From assembly GCA_045628525.1 (NCBI GenBank), contig JAZQPJ010000034.1, positions 4,061 through 68,060 on the forward strand: a stretch of DNA of 64,000 bases, given 5' to 3'. The notes under the pieces are model-generated. The model searched no databases. It was not told the origin of the DNA and was given only the letters and a program-made list of their open reading frames with translations. Both the position numbers and the translations under genes were made by a program. Shown in pieces: positions 3 through 54,090 of the stretch (the first letter of the stretch is position 1; every line of letters starts with the position of its first letter). The DNA comes from Bacteroidales bacterium (GTDB lineage Bacteria > Bacteroidota > Bacteroidia > Bacteroidales > UBA3663).

Positions 3-1634
3 CTGGCTCCTGTGACGTGGGAACTCATTGAACCTGTGGAGGGAAAGTACGATTTCTCTTCGCTTGACAATATCATCCAGGAGGCGCGACGGAACGACCT
101 GAAGGTGGTGGTGCTGTGGTTCGGCGCATGGAAGAACTCGATGAGCTGCTATGCGCCCGAGTGGTTCAAACGCGACGTGAAGCGTTTCCCTCGTGTGCAT
201 GATCGCAACGGCCTGCCGATGGAGGAGGCCTCTTCGCTCTCGGCCAATGTGCTGGAGGCGGACAAGCGTGTGTTCTGCCAGATCATGCAGCACATCAGGG
301 AGGTGGACAGCGAGGAGCAGACCATCGTGATGGTGCAGGTGGAGAATGAGATAGGCATGATCAAGGAGCCGCGGGACTACAGCAAGGATGCGACGAAGAT
401 GTATGAGAGCCAGGTGCCGAAGGAGCTGACAGAGTATCTGCTAAGTTTGAAGGGTTTGAAGGGTTCGAAGGGTTCGAAGGGTTTGAAGGGTTCGAAAGAT
501 CCGAATGGTTCAAAGGTTACTCTCAAACCCCTCAAACCTTTCAAACCCCTCAAGCTTAATAATCCTCGCTTAGAGATCTCGACCGACAAGGGCAGCTGGG
601 CAGAGCTCTTTGGCAACGACATGTATGCCGAGGAGATCTTCCAGGCATGGACCTATGCCGTCTATGTGGAGGAACTTGCCAAGGCGGGCAAGGCCATCTA
701 TGACCTGCCGATGTATGTGAATGTGGCGCTCAACAGCCGTGGCCGTAAGCCTGGCGAATACCCTTCGGCCGGCCCTTTGGCGCACCTCATCGACATCTGG
801 CATTGTGGCGCACCAAGCATCGCTGTCCTCGGCCTTGACCTCTACGACAAGGGTTATCGCGACTGGACGGCTAAGTATCATCTGCCTAACAATCCGCTCT
901 TTATCCCGGAAATCCGTCTCGAAGATCAGGATGCCATGCGTGCGCTCTATGCCTTCGGTCATCATGACGCGATGGGCTTCTGCCCGTTCTCGATCGAGGA
1001 TTATCCGCTGTATCTTAACTCTTCAAACTCCTCAAACTCTTCAAACTCCTCAAACTCCCTCGACCTCTCACTCGATGATCAGCTGAACGCGTTTTCTTCT
1101 AATAGTTCATCCCTTTCGCCTTTGGCAGCATCTTATAAATTGCTAAGACAAGCCGAGCCCTTGATCCTCGCACACCAAGGCACCGACGACATGGATGCCG
1201 TTATCCTCGACAACGACATGCGCGAAGCTGATATCCGTACGCCTGACGGCATCACCCTGCACGTAAAGCACAGCTACTCACTTGGTTGGGAGCCAGGCGC
1301 GCAATCGGACACTTGGCCGGAAGCTGCCTGCATCATCGTCCGTCAGGGCAAGGAGGATTATGTCGTGATCGGGTCGGGCGTGGTCATAACTTATGAGAAG
1401 AGTATGGAGGGGTTGAGGGGTTTGAAGGGTTCGAAAGGTTTGAGAGGTTCGAAGGGTTTGAGGGGTTCGAATGTTCAGATCGGCCTTGCCAAGTGCGAGC
1501 AAGTAGAATATGACAAGGATGGCAACATGCAGATCATCCGTCACCTGAGTGGCGATCAGACGCACCAGGGCCGTCACGTCCGCATCCCGGTAGGAGAGTA
1601 CGCGATCCAGCACTTCCGCCTTTACGAATACTAA
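3..1634 (+). CDS. Glycoside hydrolase, clan GH-A beta-galactosidase-like (GH35/42-type catalytic region with DUF5597-like C-terminal part); 5' end cut by the window edge
   Basis: The frame is open to the window start. It contains WELIEPVEGKYDFSSLD, VVLWFGAWKN and the catalytic-type VQVENEIG motif. Three repeat insertions interrupt it in frame. Confidence 0.6.
   Translation: MAPVTWELIEPVEGKYDFSSLDNIIQEARRNDLKVVVLWFGAWKNSMSCYAPEWFKRDVKRFPRVHDRNGLPMEEASSLSANVLEADKRVFCQIMQHIREVDSEEQTIVMVQVENEIGMIKEPRDYSKDATKMYESQVPKELTEYLLSLKGLKGSKGSKGLKGSKDPNGSKVTLKPLKPFKPLKLNNPRLEISTDKGSWAELFGNDMYAEEIFQAWTYAVYVEELAKAGKAIYDLPMYVNVALNSRGRKPGEYPSAGPLAHLIDIWHCGAPSIAVLGLDLYDKGYRDWTAKYHLPNNPLFIPEIRLEDQDAMRALYAFGHHDAMGFCPFSIEDYPLYLNSSNSSNSSNSSNSLDLSLDDQLNAFSSNSSSLSPLAASYKLLRQAEPLILAHQGTDDMDAVILDNDMREADIRTPDGITLHVKHSYSLGWEPGAQSDTWPEAACIIVRQGKEDYVVIGSGVVITYEKSMEGLRGLKGSKGLRGSKGLRGSNVQIGLAKCEQVEYDKDGNMQIIRHLSGDQTHQGRHVRIPVGEYAIQHFRLYEY
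445..557. repeat. Intragenic self-complementary element: six GTTYGAAGG 9-mers, a 23-bp centre, then four CTCAAACCY-type 9-mers (reverse complement of the left arm)
   Basis: Direct reading of the sequence. Period 9 keeps the frame, and it translates as SLKGLKGSKGSKGLKGSKDPNGSKVTLKPLKPFKPLKL. Confidence 0.85.
1019..1063. repeat. Intragenic 9-bp tandem repeat CTCYTCAAA x4-5 (C-strand orientation of the TTYGARG family)
   Basis: Direct reading; translates as NSSNSSNSSNSSNS. Confidence 0.85.
1407..1472. repeat. Intragenic 9-bp tandem repeat GARRGGTTY x7 (G-strand orientation), the inverted partner of 1019-1063
   Basis: Direct reading; translates as EGLRGLKGSKGLRGSKGLRGSN. Positions 1429-1446 are identical to 26459-26476. 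Confidence 0.85.
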
Positions 1635-1683: not shown

Positions 1684-3027
1684 TCATGATGCCTTGTTCT
1701 GATCGCTGATAGACAGCGCAATAATGATGGTCAAGCCGCCGCCATCGGTTTCTTCGGCCACGGCACTTCCACCATATTGCACGGCGATGTTCTTGACGAT
1801 GGCAAGGCCAAGACCAGTGCCACCTAACTTGCGGCTTCGCCCTTTATCGACGCGATAGAAGCGCTCGAAGAGGTGGGGGAGGTGTGCAGCAGGTACGCCT
1901 ACGCCATTGTCGCTGAACGTGAAGATGTAGTCAGATGACGTCATTGCAGCAGATACCGTGAAGCGTGTGGCACCCATGGCGTATGCCAGTGTGTTGTCGA
2001 AGATATTGCGAAACAGGGAGTAAATCAGGGCGGAATCGCCTTGCATGGGCATTGAACCAGGGAGCGAAAGCATATCGAGTTCAATGCCTTGTTCTGTGAA
2101 TTTGGCTTTTGTCTCGTCGGCGATGCCTTGCAGGATTTCTGCTGCATCGACTTTGGTCGTAGGGCGTACGATGGCGGCTTCGTCCAGACGTGTGAGCATG
2201 GACATGTCCTGTAGCAAGCGGCTCATGCGCTGGCTTTGCGCATAGCAGCGTGTGAGGAAAGACTGCCGTTGTTGGGCAGAAAGTGAATCGCCGGCAGAGA
2301 TCATCGTCTCAAGGTAGCCTTCGATGGCGGCAGCCGGCGTCTTGAGCTCGTGGGCGGCATTTTCGGTGAGCTGGCGCTTGATGCGACGCTTGTCCTCCTC
2401 GCTGCGATGCAATCTGAACCGAAGATAAAGCACCACGGCTATGAGCACGAGGATGCCTGCGGTGTAATAGAAAAAAGTGTAGTCGCGTTCGAGCGAAGAG
2501 GTAAGAGGGGCGGAATAGGGTACGGACGAGCGGATAATAAGACCCTTTCCCCAACCCTCCTCTGCACCCCTTCTATCCCCCGAACAGCGGGGGCAGAAAT
2601 CCGTAATCGGGAGGGAGTATTGGTTACTATCTATAGCGAAATAGGTTGCCGAATAGAAATACTTTTCACCATTGGTTTCGGACGCTCGCTTAATGTCAAA
2701 TCCAGAACCATACTGAAGGGCATCCTGAATCTCCTTGCGGAGAAGGTGGTTGCCCATTTTCTTTACATCTTTCTCCTGGCTATCATAGAGCACATTTCCT
2801 TCAGTGTCAATTATTGTGATGCGAAATGTGGTATCTATTTCTCCCTCCCCATTACGGGTGAGGGTTGGGGAGAGGGTCCTATAGTTATTGAGCTGCAGCT
2901 GCGAGTGCAGGATATCGACGCGAAACGCATGTTCACGCTGGTATTCATACACGCCGAAGCTGATGGTAAACAATGCCACCAGCAGCGTAACAATCAGAAA
3001 CAGATTATTTTTCGAACGAATATCCAT
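1684..3027 (-). CDS. Sensor histidine kinase (two TM segments, periplasmic sensor region, HisKA + HATPase_c)
   Basis: H-box ENAAHELKTP and G-box GGTGLGLAIVKNI. The start was chosen at MDIRSKNN (ATG 3027, overlapping the regulator's 3' end); ATG 3057 is an alternative. Confidence 0.85.
   Translation of the reverse strand: MDIRSKNNLFLIVTLLVALFTISFGVYEYQREHAFRVDILHSQLQLNNYRTLSPTLTRNGEGEIDTTFRITIIDTEGNVLYDSQEKDVKKMGNHLLRKEIQDALQYGSGFDIKRASETNGEKYFYSATYFAIDSNQYSLPITDFCPRCSGDRRGAEEGWGKGLIIRSSVPYSAPLTSSLERDYTFFYYTAGILVLIAVVLYLRFRLHRSEEDKRRIKRQLTENAAHELKTPAAAIEGYLETMISAGDSLSAQQRQSFLTRCYAQSQRMSRLLQDMSMLTRLDEAAIVRPTTKVDAAEILQGIADETKAKFTEQGIELDMLSLPGSMPMQGDSALIYSLFRNIFDNTLAYAMGATRFTVSAAMTSSDYIFTFSDNGVGVPAAHLPHLFERFYRVDKGRSRKLGGTGLGLAIVKNIAVQYGGSAVAEETDGGGLTIIIALSISDQNKAS
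2541..2617. repeat. C-tract/G-tract palindromic element (long form) inside the kinase sensor region
   Basis: GACCCTTTCCCCAACCCTCC...CCCCCGAACAGCGGGGG...CCGTAATCGGGAGGGAG. It is read through in frame. Confidence 0.75.
2841..2879. repeat. C-tract/G-tract palindromic element (short form, inverted relative to 2541-2617)
   Basis: The reverse complement reads GACCCTCTCCCCAACCCTCACCCGTAATGGGGAGGGAG, with the same termini as the long form. Confidence 0.75.
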
Positions 3028-3739
3028 AGCCGAACCTTGTGCGAATACATTTGCCATATTGTCCGATCTTCTTGCGCAGACGCGTGATGTTGACATCCAC
3101 CGTGCGGTCGAGCACGTACGCATCATTTGGCCAGATGCGTGTCAGGATCTCCTCGCGAGAGAAGACGGTGTGTGGGTGTTCCAGGAGCAAATCAAGCAGC
3201 TCATATTCAAGCTTTGTGAGCGTCACCTCCGTACCATCCACATGGCAGGTCTTTGCCAACGTATCGAGCACCAAACCCTCATAACTCACCTTATTGTCGC
3301 TGTTATTTGTTTCTTTGGCAGGGAGCTCTTTATCTTTTTCACTCTTTACCTCTTTCGCTTGCTGAGATGCAGCGCGGCGAAGCACCGCCTTGACCCTCGC
3401 CTTCACCTCACTCAATCTGAATGGCTTCGTGATATAGTCATCCGACCCCAGCGAGAATCCGTCCAGCACATCCTTCTCCTCGGTCTTTGCCGTGCAGAAG
3501 ATGATGGGGATTGCTGCCAACGCCGCATCCTGTTTCATCAGTTTGGCCACCTCAAACCCGCTGAGGCCCTCCATCATCACGTCGAGCAGCACTAGGTCAA
3601 ATGCCTCGGCCTTGAGCATGACAAGCGCTTCCTCGCCCGATGCCGCGGTCTCGACCGTGTACCCTTCCGTCTGGAGGTTATACTGCAGGATGTCGCAGAT
3701 GTCCTGCTCATCATCCACTATCAAAATTCGTTCGTTCAT
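3005..3739 (-). CDS. OmpR/PhoB-family DNA-binding response regulator
   Basis: Receiver domain (ILIVDDEQDI, LLDVMMEGLSG) and a winged-helix C-terminus (LTKLEYELL...VDVNITRLRKKI). The start was set at MNERIL because a -7 box lies inside the longer ORF. Confidence 0.9.
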   Translation of the reverse strand: MNERILIVDDEQDICDILQYNLQTEGYTVETAASGEEALVMLKAEAFDLVLLDVMMEGLSGFEVAKLMKQDAALAAIPIIFCTAKTEEKDVLDGFSLGSDDYITKPFRLSEVKARVKAVLRRAASQQAKEVKSEKDKELPAKETNNSDNKVSYEGLVLDTLAKTCHVDGTEVTLTKLEYELLDLLLEHPHTVFSREEILTRIWPNDAYVLDRTVDVNITRLRKKIGQYGKCIRTRFGYGYSFEK

Positions 3740-4226: not shown

Positions 4227-4499
4227 ATGTACACAGTCATCACTTCAAAAGCTTTTGAGAAGGATTATAAAAGGTGCCAAAAGCGAGGCTTGAATATTCG
4301 ACTACTTCAGGAAGCAATCACCCTTCTGGCCAATGACGGAAAACTTCCACCAGAATATCGCCCACACATCCTAAGCGGCAAGTATGCCGGCATCTGGGAA
4401 TGCCATATCAAGGGTGACTGGCTCATGACATGGCGACAGTATGATGACCGTCTTGAGCTGCTCATGCTCAATACGGGTACACATTCCGACTTATTTTAG
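4227..4499 (+). CDS. yafQ: Type II toxin, YafQ/RelE family mRNA interferase
   Basis: 90 aa, collinear with E. coli YafQ (KDYKRCQKRG..., ECHIKGDWLM..., C-terminal NTGTHSDLF versus TGTHAALF). Confidence 0.85.
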   Translation: MYTVITSKAFEKDYKRCQKRGLNIRLLQEAITLLANDGKLPPEYRPHILSGKYAGIWECHIKGDWLMTWRQYDDRLELLMLNTGTHSDLF

Positions 4500-4527
4500 T
4501 TGCTCAAAGTGGTACATCTTTTTTATT

Positions 4528-4565
4528 AGGCCCTGCCTCCCAAGAACATCCAGGAGGCAGGGCCT
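4528..4565. terminator. Convergent-gene hairpin (13-bp perfect stem AGGCCCTGCCTCC/GGAGGCAGGGCCT)
   Basis: Lies between the yafQ stop and the nptA stop. There is no canonical U-tract on either side. Confidence 0.5.
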
Positions 4566-4570
4566 TAATA

Positions 4571-6253
4571 TTACTTGTTCACAGCAGCTTCTGCCTGCAC
4601 CACATTGATCGCATAGTCGCCTATCTTCTCGCATTCGGCAATGAAGTCGTTGAAGAAGGCGCCGAGGCGGTAGCTGTACTTGCCCTCGTTCACGGCGATG
4701 AGGTTCTCCTCGCGGCTGATGGTGCGCAGGGAGTTGATCTCGTTTTCTGCCTCGATGTTGTCGCGCAGATTGATTACCACGTGTTCAGGGTCGGTGATCA
4801 CCTGACGCATCTCATGCAGGGCGCGCTCGGTGAGGTCGAGCATCTGGGTCATCTGCATCTTCTGGTAGTCGGTGAAGTCGCTCGGCTCATTCTCACGCTT
4901 GCGCTGCAGGGTACGGCCGAGGTGGAACATCGAGTCTCCGATCGACTCCAGCTCGTCCACCTGTCGCAGCATCTGGGCGATGTGGTTCTTCGAGTAAGCC
5001 GAGAGCCTGCCCTCCGACACCTTGCGCAGGTAGCCGGCAATCTCCACCTCCATGTTGTCGGTGATCTGCTCGTAGTGTTCCAGTCGCTTGTATTCCTCGG
5101 CAAAGTCGCTCTCCTTCTTGGCCGAAAGGGCGCGGTTCACCATGTCGAGCATCTTCTGGCAACGCTCGGCCATGACACCCACCTCGTTGCGTGCCTGCAG
5201 GATGGAGAGCTCGGCCGTAGAGAGCAAGCCGCCGCTGATGTAGCGCAGACGTGTCTCCTCCTGCGTCTCCTTCTGAGGCAGCACGCGGCACACCAGCTGC
5301 TCAATCTGCTTGACGAAGCCAATCAATAACAAGGTGTTGAATACGTTGAATGCCGTGTGGAAGGCCGAGAGCTTGAAGAGGTCGTTGTTGCCAGCGCCCA
5401 TCACATGCTCCACGAACCATGACACGCCGTTGCAGAACGGATAGAACATCAGGAGCACCACCACCACGCCGAACACATTGAAGAACATGTGCGCGAGTGC
5501 CGCGCGTCGTGCCTGCGTGTTGGCGGTCAGGGAGGCGATGAATGCCGTGATCGTCGTACCGATGTTCTGACCCATGGCCAAAGCCGCTGCCTGCTCAAGG
5601 CCGAAGCCGGGGATCTGCATGTCGAACAGCATCAACGTGATGGCCATCGTGGCGGCCGATGCCTGAACGAGCATGGTAACCAATGCACCCACTACCACGA
5701 AAAGCAAGATTGTGAGGAAACCGCCATCGGCCACGCCTGCCAGCATCTGTGCCACCAGTTCGCCGATGTTCAGATCGGTGGCCGATTGCTGCAGGAAACT
5801 CAAGCCCATGAACAGGAACGAGAAGCCGAAGATGAACTCGCCGATCGACTTGCGATGCGAATTGCTGCTGAAGATGAGCGGAATGCCAAAGGCAAGCAAC
5901 GGCAACGCCAGGGCGGCGATATTGACCTTGAAACCGACAGCCGAGATGATCCATGCCGTCACCGTGGTGCCCACATTGGCACCCATGATCACGCCGATGG
6001 CTTGTGCCAGCGTCATCAATCCGGCATTGACAAACGAAACGACCATCACCGTGGTGGCCGAAGAGGATTGGATCAAGGCGGTCACGGCAATGCCCGTGAG
6101 AACACCCATCACACGATTGCGCGTCATGGCAGCCAGGATGCTGCGCAGACGATCGCCAGCAAATTTCTCAAGACCCTCGCTCATCGTCTTCATGCCGAAG
6201 AGGAAGAGTGCCAGGGATCCGATCAGGGAGAGGAGATTCAGAATTGTATCCAT
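4571..6253 (-). CDS. Na+/phosphate cotransporter family protein (NptA/YjbB type) with a C-terminal PhoU-like helical domain
   Basis: Duplicated Na_Pi_cotrans motifs (QSSSATTVMVVSF, GANVGTTVTAW; GQNIGTTITAF) and a long helical C-terminal half. Confidence 0.9.
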   Translation of the reverse strand: MDTILNLLSLIGSLALFLFGMKTMSEGLEKFAGDRLRSILAAMTRNRVMGVLTGIAVTALIQSSSATTVMVVSFVNAGLMTLAQAIGVIMGANVGTTVTAWIISAVGFKVNIAALALPLLAFGIPLIFSSNSHRKSIGEFIFGFSFLFMGLSFLQQSATDLNIGELVAQMLAGVADGGFLTILLFVVVGALVTMLVQASAATMAITLMLFDMQIPGFGLEQAAALAMGQNIGTTITAFIASLTANTQARRAALAHMFFNVFGVVVVLLMFYPFCNGVSWFVEHVMGAGNNDLFKLSAFHTAFNVFNTLLLIGFVKQIEQLVCRVLPQKETQEETRLRYISGGLLSTAELSILQARNEVGVMAERCQKMLDMVNRALSAKKESDFAEEYKRLEHYEQITDNMEVEIAGYLRKVSEGRLSAYSKNHIAQMLRQVDELESIGDSMFHLGRTLQRKRENEPSDFTDYQKMQMTQMLDLTERALHEMRQVITDPEHVVINLRDNIEAENEINSLRTISREENLIAVNEGKYSYRLGAFFNDFIAECEKIGDYAINVVQAEAAVNK

Positions 6254-6255
6254 AT

Positions 6256-6302
6256 TTTCAAATTACAGATTACAGATTTCAGATTACGAATTACAAATTA
6301 CG
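6256..6302. repeat. Heptamer tandem repeat (GTAATYT/GAAATCT x6-7 on the gene strand) filling the 5' leader of nptA
   Basis: The gene strand reads CGTAATTTGTAATTCGTAATCTGAAATCTGTAATCTGTAATTTGAAAAT-ATG. The 18-mer at 6256-6273 is identical to 57896-57913. Confidence 0.85.
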
Positions 6303-14874: not shown

Positions 14875-15160
14875 TGCAATAGTCCGACTTGGATCTGAGT
14901 CGGACTATTGCAGATCTGCAAAAGCATGTCGCAAGACAGAATATGTAATTGTAAATCTGCAGCAGTCCGACCTGGATCCAAGTCGGACTGCTGCGGCTCT
15001 TCAATAGTCCGACTTGATACCGTGTCGGACTGTCGCGCGTTTGCAATAGTCCGACTTGGTACCGTGTCGGACTGTCGCACGTTTGCAATAGTCCGACTTG
15101 GGTTCAGGTCGGACTGTCGCGCGTTTGCATTAGTCCGACTTGGGTTCAGGTCGGACTTTT
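14875..15160. repeat. Array of six palindromic units (AGTCCGAC-N10-GTCGGACT); the last four are in exact 42-bp register
   Basis: Left half-sites at 14881, 14964, 15006, 15048, 15090 and 15132. A conserved 16-bp linker GTCGCRCGTTTGCAAT separates units; the first two stems extend to 13-14 bp. Confidence 0.9.
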
Positions 15161-17004: not shown

Positions 17005-17038
17005 TTTGATAAGATTTATGATGTTAGTGGATGATTGT

Positions 17039-17079
17039 TTCGAGGTTTCGATAATTCGAGGTTTCGATGCTTCGAGGGG
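17039..17079. repeat. 16-bp tandem repeat TTCGAGGTTTCGATRM x2.5 in the LacI-SDR spacer
   Basis: Direct reading; related to the TTYGARG family. Confidence 0.8.
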
Positions 17080-26455: not shown

Positions 26456-26541
26456 AGAGTTCGAAAGGTTTGAGAGATTTGAAAAGTATGTATTTGATAA
26501 CACTCTCGAACATTTCGAACTTCTCAAACTCTCAGATTCAA
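26456..26541. repeat. Intergenic palindromic element of the TTYGARG family, exactly filling the proS-pnuC spacer
   Basis: The left arm GTTCGAAAGGTTTGAGAGATTTGAAAAG faces the right arm CTCTCGAACATTTCGAACTTCTCAAACTCTCAGATTCAAA. The 18-mer at 26459-26476 is identical to 1429-1446. Confidence 0.85.
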
Positions 26542-39737: not shown

Positions 39738-39975
39738 GTTCTTCGATTCGAGACGTCGAAAAGCATGTCCGGAATCTTGGCGAAGGAATTCGAGTTGTCG
39801 AATAGTTTGTCCGGACCTTGTGACAAGGAATTCGAGCCGTCGAAAAGGCTGTCTGGATTCTTGGACAAGGAATTCGAGCCGTCGAAGAGCCTATCCGAAA
39901 CCTCAGACAAAGATTTCGAGCCGTCGAAAAGCATGTCATAGAACTCTGGCAAAGATTTCGAGACGTCGAACTCTA
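39738..39975. repeat. Tandem array of about 5.6 units in exact 42-bp register (ATTCGAGCCGTCGAAAAGSMTGTCYGGAWYCTTGGMCAAGGA)
   Basis: TTCGAG anchors at 39747, 39789, 39831, 39873, 39915 and 39957. Each unit carries TTCGA-N4-TCGAA and CCTTG/CAAGG mini-palindromes. Confidence 0.9.
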
Positions 39976-53652: not shown

Positions 53653-54090
53653 AGCGGTGGCATGTCGAAAGAGATGGAAAAAGCGCTGAAAATGTGCTGA
53701 AAGTTCGCAAATCCATTAGGAATGCCTCTGCAAGTGTGCGGAAGGGCGGAAAATGATTTTTTGCGGCTCAGCAGATCTGCGGAGGGTTTCCAAAAGTTTT
53801 TTTTGCGGCTCCGCACGTTTGCGAAAGCTCTACAAAAAGTTTTTCTGTGACTCTGCAAATCTGCGGAAGCTCTCCAAAAGTTTTTCCAAGGCTCAGCAAA
53901 CTGTCGGAGCTCAGAAAATGTTTTAGCGAAGGTTTTGCAGGTTTGCAGAGGCATTCCTAAAGATTTTGTGTCCGCTCCGCATGTTTGCATCACCTTTTCG
54001 ATGCGATTTGCAGATTCAGTGCGAGCTCGCATCACCTTTTCGATGCGATTTGCAGATTCAATGCAAGTTCGCGTCACTTTTCCTGATGCT
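53653..54090. repeat. Degenerate tandem array of about 10 units holding a 40-42-bp register; the last 2.5 units are near-identical (GCATCACCTTTTCGATGCGATTTGCAGATTCARTGCRAGYTC)
   Basis: Unit anchors at 53695, 53737, 53778, 53820, 53862, 53904, 53944 and 53986/53987, then 54029 and 54071. The final unit runs into the 3' end of the DUF2851 gene. Confidence 0.8.

Follow-up and report, generated by a model that had tools for sequence, protein, structure and literature searches.

In heterocystous cyanobacteria, the sequences known as STRR (short tandemly repeated repetitive) place one short unit in tandem at many loci and can form intergenic hairpins, for which a role in transcript stability or translational coupling has been proposed (PMC2670836), and one such sequence lies inside a functional RNase P RNA gene according to the passage of PMC2858038 that cites Vioque 1997. 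Here we describe a stretch of 64,000 nucleotides from a Bacteroidales bacterium (contig JAZQPJ010000034.1; this whole stretch is referred to as the window), in which the gene for a GH35-like β-galactosidase carries in-frame arrays of a 9-nt repeat family with the unit GGTTYGARR at three sites, termed a, b and c. Rather than forming a working inverted pair, the arrays at sites b and c are most probably separate solo arrays that face away from each other, and we hold it moderately likely that they are independent members of a dispersed short-period satellite whose complete form is a hairpin with the G-rich arm first. By analogy, the nearest described kind is the cyanobacterial STRR, and the nearest in-frame precedent is given by the Rickettsia palindromic elements.

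With the STRR, the family shares a single short unit that is tandemly arrayed at many unrelated loci as well as hairpin-forming inverted arrays, which are found here at 444-556, at 26458-26530 and in 23 pairs elsewhere; this second likeness does not extend to sites b and c individually. The latter number comes from a census in which one genome per species was scanned for three exact units, and it is counted, as are all pair, frame and host counts of the census given below, among the matches listed. The unit is 7 nt in the STRR, whereas it is 9 nt here (9-10 nt in related arrays), and because this period equals three codons, any unit number keeps the reading frame and protein genes can hold in-frame arrays whatever their length. 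Host organisms differ as well, being heterocystous cyanobacteria there and Bacteroidota, Acidobacteriota and others here. To our knowledge, neither a strict G-arm-first polarity nor the in-frame occupancy of protein loops has been described for the STRR.

The Rickettsia palindromic elements of Ogata et al. 2000 reportedly lie both between genes and in frame in conserved protein genes, where they add surface peptides while function is kept. Here, too, a dispersed repeat lies in frame within conserved protein genes; however, the Rickettsia elements are consensus families of 100-150 bp of unique sequence, whereas the present arrays are of variable length, consist of 9-nt units, are mostly solo inside genes and occur in several phyla. 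Repetitive extragenic palindromic (REP) sequences and bacterial interspersed mosaic elements (BIME) are imperfect palindromes just past stop codons or in operons, sometimes clustered, that are thought to protect the upstream mRNA. The REP elements are extragenic, 20-40 nt long, of fixed sequence and dependent on REP-associated tyrosine transposases (RAYT). Unlike REP elements and REPINs, the arrays described here are also found in coding sequence (three in the open reading frame (ORF) 12-1634 and 64 elsewhere among the matches listed). REP elements carry a GTAG/CGTC tag (PMC3733652), and no conserved GTAG or CGTC end tag was found in the window copies and 14 other hairpins that were read. Miniature inverted-repeat transposable elements (MITE) differ in that the arrays show neither target-site duplication, in five comparisons, nor a conserved internal sequence or length. 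As in intragenic variable-number tandem repeats (VNTR), head-to-tail units with a length that is a multiple of 3 nt vary in number between related genomes while the ORF and its flanks are preserved, but the unit of an ordinary VNTR is locus-specific, whereas here one unit family occurs at many loci, on both strands and in five frames. The PARCEL repeats lie in tandem in coding sequence, show dyad symmetry and are scattered patchily, and apparently by horizontal spread, among distant microbes (PMC2996958), and the present arrays resemble them in these respects. A PARCEL unit, however, is 75 nt long (25 residues) and defines a protein domain, and the ORFs that contain such units are without assigned function, many of them membrane-targeted (PMC2996958), whereas the present arrays are 9-nt fillers of enzyme loops and spacers. 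In the literature we found analogies only and no description of the 9-mer family, its in-frame spread or its polarity rule, and the GGTTYGARR family is apparently both widespread and undescribed.

Arrays of the window and their host gene

The host gene and the members of the family in the window are as follows.

12-1634, plus strand: host gene, GH35-like β-galactosidase, C-terminal 540 codons; the 5' end is lost at the window edge.
444-515, plus strand: G-rich arm of site a, about eight GGTTYGARR units, the inner two degenerate; translation (S)LKGLKGSKGSKGLKGSKDPNGSK.
521-556, minus strand: C-rich arm of site a, four YYTCRAACC units on the plus strand, pairing with 444-515; translation LKPLKPFKPLK.
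1017-1063, minus strand: site b, solo array of five AACTCYTCA units (reverse complement AGTTTGARG), with the C-rich strand coding; translation NSSNSSNSSNSSNS.
1410-1472, plus strand: site c, solo array of seven GGTTYGARR units, with the G-rich strand coding; translation GLRGLKGSKGLRGSKGLRGSN.
26458-26530, no strand assigned: intergenic family member in which three G-rich units are followed, after a loop of 19 nt, by three C-rich units.

The five CTCYTCAAA-type units at 1017-1063 and the seven GGTTYGARR units at 1410-1472, both corresponding to arrays that the initial annotation had called in-frame, were confirmed by the sequence itself, by Tandem Repeats Finder and by translation, the ORF containing YLNSSNSSNSSNSSNSLDLS and MEGLRGLKGSKGLRGSKGLRGSNVQ at the repeat sites. 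Tandem Repeats Finder placed one period-9 array at 1017-1058 (4.7 copies, with a match of 100% at period 18), another at 1397-1471 (8.3 copies) and more at 445-516 as well as 522-553; counted by whole units, site b spans 1017-1061 and comprises four AACTCYTCA units and one degenerate fifth unit. A two-unit pattern with up to two mismatches matched 21 times in the 64-kb window, against 0.07 matches expected from shuffles, and these matches were confined to four loci (444-556, 1021-1056, 1410-1472 and 26458-26530), three of which lie within 1.03 kb (P about 0.003 under random placement). The intergenic array begins 10 nt past the proS stop, and its end lies 13 nt short of the position at which a pnuC-like gene probably starts. 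The identity of the 18-mer 1429-1446 with 26459-26476 is real; as independent evidence of transfer we rejected it, since it is expected in so degenerate a family and shows membership only. The claim that the family is not gene-specific stands nevertheless, given the intergenic copy in the window and the at least 116 stretches of the family at loci elsewhere. The longest exact repeat among the arrays is the 20-nt direct repeat GGGTTTGAAGGGTTCGAAAG, which links sites a and c at 479-498 and 1418-1437 with an in-frame offset of 939 nt; it is a possible deletion substrate, but the deletion would remove most of the enzyme.

The host ORF matches PF18120, PF02449 and PF01301 in Pfam, with DUF5597 as the C-terminal domain, and GH35 β-galactosidases among the PDB sequences (E = 2e-93). 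Outside the arrays, the ratio of nonsynonymous to synonymous substitution (dN/dS) is 0.044 against contig L001 and 0.046 against L002, and these comparisons indicate that the gene is under strong purifying selection and clearly functional. Synonymous divergence (dS) from L001 amounts to 0.49, which, together with the low dN/dS, means that the arrays have persisted across substantial divergence in a functional gene. They add about 33, 5 and 19 residues to the enzyme at sites a, b and c. In the AlphaFold2 model that we used, which is that of the L001 homologue P0001 (mean predicted local distance difference test score, pLDDT, of 75), the inserts are coil segments at residues 225-254, 409-419 and 536-548, with pLDDT values below 50 at sites a and b and of about 60-68 at site c, the latter in a loop between two β-strands of the DUF5597 domain. 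According to this model, all three arrays occupy disordered, low-confidence surface loops. A collagen-like triple helix (PF01391) was considered for the Gly-X-Y pattern and rejected: the match reaches 20.5 bits against a gathering cut-off of 27.2, covers 20 residues only and concerns DNA that is read in five frames elsewhere. The pattern is a by-product of GGT-TYG-ARR read in frame.

For comparison with relatives, the DNA of five homologues of 77-90% identity was codon-aligned with the window gene and L001. Among the closest database relatives, only P0001 (96% amino-acid identity) shares all three arrays with the window gene, and in the five homologues each of the three places is taken by a short native loop; site a is absent from L002 and from L197-L199. 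As to the possibility raised at the outset, that homologous low-complexity linkers might occupy the same sites in unrelated taxa, homologues of at most 90% identity have no arrays there. A metagenome scan for closer relatives of the host gene returned nothing above 67% identity. The copy-number variation that the initial annotation had named as a test of polymorphism is seen at all three sites in L001, the sole close relative, which has two, one and three fewer units at sites a, b and c. These alignments show that the arrays entered the host gene after its split from the 90%-identical lineage and before that from the 96%-identical one, and unit numbers changed after acquisition, as replication slippage would produce.

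The initial annotation had counted three independent in-frame insertions of one repeat family. One family at three sites is indeed what is found, but native codons were replaced rather than cleanly interrupted, and 444-556 is itself a complete hairpin. At every site array DNA substitutes for native codons, the net change always being a multiple of three: at site a, 113 nt stand where the empty allele has 14; at site b, the codons of the ancestral ...SNASNS-DWKNM... were overwritten, including the otherwise conserved DW; and at site c, V-SNAK was replaced by the array. No target-site duplication was seen in five filled/empty comparisons, in which native bases were replaced instead. Two of these comparisons concern intergenic arrays. 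For the intergenic hairpin 26458-26530, cluster mates of the window prolyl-tRNA synthetase, which itself had no exact database match, served as the basis; the hairpin is identical in L193 and L194 and absent in the more distant L195 and L196, where the spacer differs.

Arm polarity and the relation between sites b and c

Among the matches listed, 36 pairs of neighbouring arrays lie no more than 600 nt apart, of which 23 have the G-rich arm first, one the C-rich arm first and 12 the same orientation; within 150 nt, the G-rich arm comes first in 16 cases and the C-rich arm in none. The lone C-rich-first pair of the GGTTYGARR census is 1021-1056/1410-1472, that is, the pair of sites b and c. In a unit-agnostic test of all fetched loci (L003-L196), in which adjacent arrays of periods 7-12 with reverse-complement consensus units were scored, 41 pairs were G-arm-first, one was C-arm-first and seven were ambiguous, 18 pairs with unrelated units being included. 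The polarity rule is general and reaches beyond the GGTTYGARR family, and the counts imply that the normal complete element is a hairpin of G-rich arm, centre and C-rich arm.

It is possible, although we would put it forward only tentatively, that these hairpins represent an undescribed cross-phylum class of 'polar' tandem-repeat hairpins with units of 7-10 nt, the polarity of which would stem from a strand-specific generating mechanism rather than from selection. The G-rich strand would run 5' to 3' towards the centre from both sides, which is the topology of a head-to-head telomere fusion, and the elements would colonise stop-codon-proximal spacers and, at period 9, protein loops. Fold-back synthesis from G-rich nascent 3' ends and enzymatic repeat addition onto both 3' break ends would be candidate generators. 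Telomerase-like healing of both break ends would predict polarity, target loss and variable centres, but we rank it low, as the order of unit variants is mirrored between the arms (e.g. L103 6082-6389) and the 100-500-nt centres can carry native terminators. We know of no enzyme for such healing.

The arrays at b and c had been described as reverse complements of one another at the word level. Their complementarity is indeed confined to that level, since the site b unit AGTTTGARG has A rather than G at position 1; exact complementary words do not exceed 8 nt, and identity reaches 72% in the best ungapped register. The inference drawn from the inverted arrangement, namely that the pair could mediate inversion or deletion, was not supported. 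Exact complementarity of 8 nt is far below what RecA-type recombination needs, and the near-identical long inverted repeats of an invertible DNA switch are lacking; one orientation was seen, with one relative compared. In L001, the only relative available, neither an inversion nor a deletion of the segment between sites b and c was found. The roughly 340 bp that separate the arrays were rightly called ordinary coding sequence, with a dN/dS of 0.03 for 1076-1394, and an inversion would scramble this segment.

A joint role of sites b and c, be it as a recombination substrate for inversion or deletion or in a long-range stem of the mRNA that would loop out 340 nt, therefore seems to us very improbable. 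The minimum-free-energy RNA fold of 1005-1485 does pair the two arrays (z -3.3), but predicted pairing of this kind is automatic for complementary repeats, and ribosomes would melt a stem in translated mRNA. Both arrays have been retained over a dS of 0.49, and in the adjacent histidine kinase gene, too, about 200-300 nt are enclosed by inverted copies of another element; yet unit numbers changed independently in the two arms, identity between them is 72-78%, and their order is the one-in-24 exception among the matches listed. The exceptional arm order, the lack of a recombination substrate, the collinearity of L001 and purifying selection together point to two solo arrays and not to a switch.

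Dispersal of the family and possible origins of its arrays

The taxa among the matches listed comprise rumen and gut Bacteroidales, Prevotella (including the isolate Prevotella sp. P3-122), Saprospiraceae, Chitinophagales, Lentimicrobiaceae, Acidobacteriota and a few others; the unit core GGTT-Y-GA is kept across them, while the base at position 5 is C or T depending on the taxon. Sixty-four of the 177 arrays listed lie deep within ORFs of at least 250 aa and use five reading frames, which encode SNP/SNL, PQT/LQT, LKP/FKP, GLK/GSK and FEG peptides; five of the six frames of the unit are always stop-free. The use of five frames marks a DNA-level family and not a peptide family. The hosts are ordinary enzymes and sensors and include GH2, GH31 and GH43 enzymes, α-L-rhamnosidase, a hybrid two-component sensor, a BcrAD-type activase, DPP-IV and a pectinesterase. 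Orthologous rhamnosidases of two species (L082 and L084) have arrays at the same two positions, with four versus seven units, and at a third site one ortholog has a full hairpin and the other only a decayed arm. Several contigs of one metagenome-assembled genome (MAG) carry arrays, and 416 kb of unselected rumen contigs contained three distinct array loci.

The explanation that we favour for sites b and c, as independent solo members of this dispersed satellite, would involve a seeding step in which new sites are copied from existing arrays by microhomology-primed template switching. The palindromic TTCGAA/TTYGAA core would allow a nascent 3' end to anneal to either strand, and this could account for both array orientations. 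Template switching could likewise explain why a few native codons are replaced at each site, why three sites cluster in about 1 kb and why unit-like ancestral words are found at b and c (site b has GCTTCGAAT, and site c has GGTTCCAAT and GTGTCAAAT). Fold-back of a G-rich nascent strand might then turn a solo array into a hairpin: G.T wobble lets only the G-rich strand of TTYGAA self-pair, whereas its complement would need C.A mismatches, so that fold-back copying from G-rich nascent strands could produce the observed polarity. Unit number would subsequently shift by replication slippage. Under this proposal, the b-c pair would do nothing as a pair, and its SNS and GLK/GSK peptides would be tolerated linker filler.

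Several observations weigh against this proposal. We infer the seeding step from three junctions and two intergenic filled/empty comparisons, and an intermediate was never seen. No unit-like word was found in the empty alleles of site a and of the intergenic copy, and microhomology can therefore not be the whole story. The same unit occurs in distant phyla, for which purely local copying is insufficient and which may point to an enzyme in common, to horizontal spread or to something intrinsic to the unit. The comparison that speaks against rearrangement of 1064-1406 involves one relative, L001. Finally, the inner 82 nt of site a (472-553) are mismatch-free against L001 despite an overall divergence of 8.9%, where about 0.07 such runs would be expected; the signal is marginal but suggests some constraint, possibly a function.

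The unit-like ancestral words could also be taken to mean that each array was born in situ from a native proto-unit (GGT-TCN-AAT, AAT-GCT-TCG) by 9-nt duplication and slippage, with no transfer between loci, and that the family looks dispersed only because the unit encodes loop-friendly tripeptides in nearly every frame. Homologues do carry SN(A/S)SNS at site b, including a perfect AGCAACAGC twice in L198, and GGT TCC AAT and TCA AAT words at site c; in the distant homologue L175, the loop of site c holds another 9-mer array, TCCGATAAG, in frame (4288-4365); and period 9 is the commonest tandem-repeat period in 480 kb of unselected rumen contigs. We nonetheless consider this unlikely. The empty alleles of site a and of the intergenic hairpin have no proto-unit, selection at the peptide level is impossible for intergenic copies and for the hairpin architecture, the overwriting of the conserved DWKNM codons at site b is not achieved by slippage alone, and the serine codons switch from AGC/GCT to TCY, as in the family unit.

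Presence/absence polymorphism at otherwise 99%-identical flanks (L174 versus L164) is what one would expect of a mobile element, and so are the fixed arm polarity, which would suit a structured element, the many copies in some genomes with a patchy distribution over several phyla, and the small element in the neighbouring histidine kinase gene whose peptide sits elsewhere in a homologue. The arrays would then be the protein-binding ends of a non-autonomous MITE-, REP/RAYT- or retroelement-like element moved in trans, and solo arrays would be half-elements left by abortive or decayed insertions. Such an origin appears improbable, given the lack of target-site duplication at any junction examined and the central regions and arm lengths of the hairpins, which differ between copies even within one contig or genome, with unit type varying freely as well; nor could a transposase, at which no search was aimed, be linked to the arrays. 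A phage vehicle is unlikely, as only 4 matches were found in 2.9 million viral contigs, and a plasmid search with the array-rich contig L103 gave no match.

Some hairpins might instead be kept as functional nucleic-acid elements, that is, as a transcript-end stabiliser, insulator, terminator or pause site in the manner of REP/BIME or the STRR, and at least the 444-556 hairpin among the in-gene copies might be retained for such a role. This hairpin (G-rich arm, 5-nt loop and C-rich arm) folds as RNA with -53.8 kcal/mol (z about -6.2), and its mismatch-free core would fit a function, as would the prevalence of the C-rich strand as the sense strand (47 of the 64 in-ORF arrays listed, against 17 with the G-rich strand), as if G-rich RNA were avoided. 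In an orthologous post-stop spacer of lineages that are 78-99% identical, hairpins or solo arrays directly follow the stop codon although the unit changes (GGTTYGARR, GGTTCTGAAA, TTAAGGG-type or CTCCGAnnA). For the STRR hairpins, transcript stabilisation has been proposed (PMC2670836). On balance, we rate a functional origin as hardly probable, since an Rfam scan of the whole window gave no match, arm sequence and length drift freely, the conservation signal is marginal, and arrays are present or absent between near-identical strains, one allele of the spacer being nearly empty at 99%-identical flanks. Nothing ties sites b and c to such a role.

Related repeats and significance of the family

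In relatives of the host gene, the spacer directly after the stop is filled by arrays of varied 9-10-nt units, namely TTAAGGG-type hairpins, CTCCGAnnA, AATTAGRCC and CCCTAAAG. These post-stop and array loci are as follows.

L161, L162 and L165: about 4500-4700 / 3390-3570; L149: 4469-4624; L158: 2960-2996.
L163, L177 and L187: after the stop at about 1595 / 4500.

The contigs L010, L059, L063 and L103, all of the MAG QFQQ01, are very rich in intergenic array hairpins and have a GC content of 46%. The label of this MAG, Citrobacter freundii, is probably a binning error, in view of this GC content and of the genes on the contigs, which code for AdoHcyase, a SET-domain protein and a dehydrogenase of the Iso_dh family (isocitrate/isopropylmalate).

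Downstream of the host gene lies a histidine kinase gene identified by Pfam (1684-3126, minus strand), followed by an ORF that resembles a response regulator as judged from its translation only. The kinase gene contains a different small in-frame element at 2537-2627 with the peptide LPITDFCPRCSGDRRGAEEGWG and a partial inverted copy about 200 nt away at 2831-2882, the two flanking a Cache-like domain. Most histidine kinase homologues have neither copy, and in the homologue P0139 the peptide stands elsewhere, following the HisKA helix; this is suggestive of an in-frame element that is mobile.

Other tandem repeats occur in the window. Arrays of the 7-nt unit ATTACAG at 6256-6301, 12354-12376 and 13457-13483, two of them within long ORFs in the common frame ...LQITDY..., look like a second dispersed short-repeat family entering coding sequence. 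Period-42 tandem arrays with unrelated units are found at 14964-15157, 39746-39970, 53757-53912 and 53987-54082; at least the first two lie outside stop-to-stop ORFs of 150 aa or more, and each of their units holds its own small stem-loop, e.g. AGTCCGAC-N10-GTCGGACT. A 33-nt repeat at 10750-10882 (3.7 copies, 95% match) lies inside a 494-aa ORF, and a period-8/16 array, GTTTCGAG, at 17037-17077 near a gene start resembles the 9-mer unit.

If sites b and c are indeed solo members of a dispersed satellite, then a single 9-nt satellite would have been written repeatedly, and in frame, into loops of housekeeping and carbohydrate-active enzymes in rumen and gut Bacteroidales as well as in distant phyla, and a GH35-like enzyme tolerates its inserts at three sites while under purifying selection. 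The arrays would confound annotation, domain calling and short-read assembly, and they could be used as natural VNTR markers for strain typing. Their strict arm polarity would offer a testable handle on the birth of dispersed tandem repeats, a question that dates from the descriptions of the cyanobacterial STRR, and the family as a whole would continually supply linker sequence and variation in protein length.

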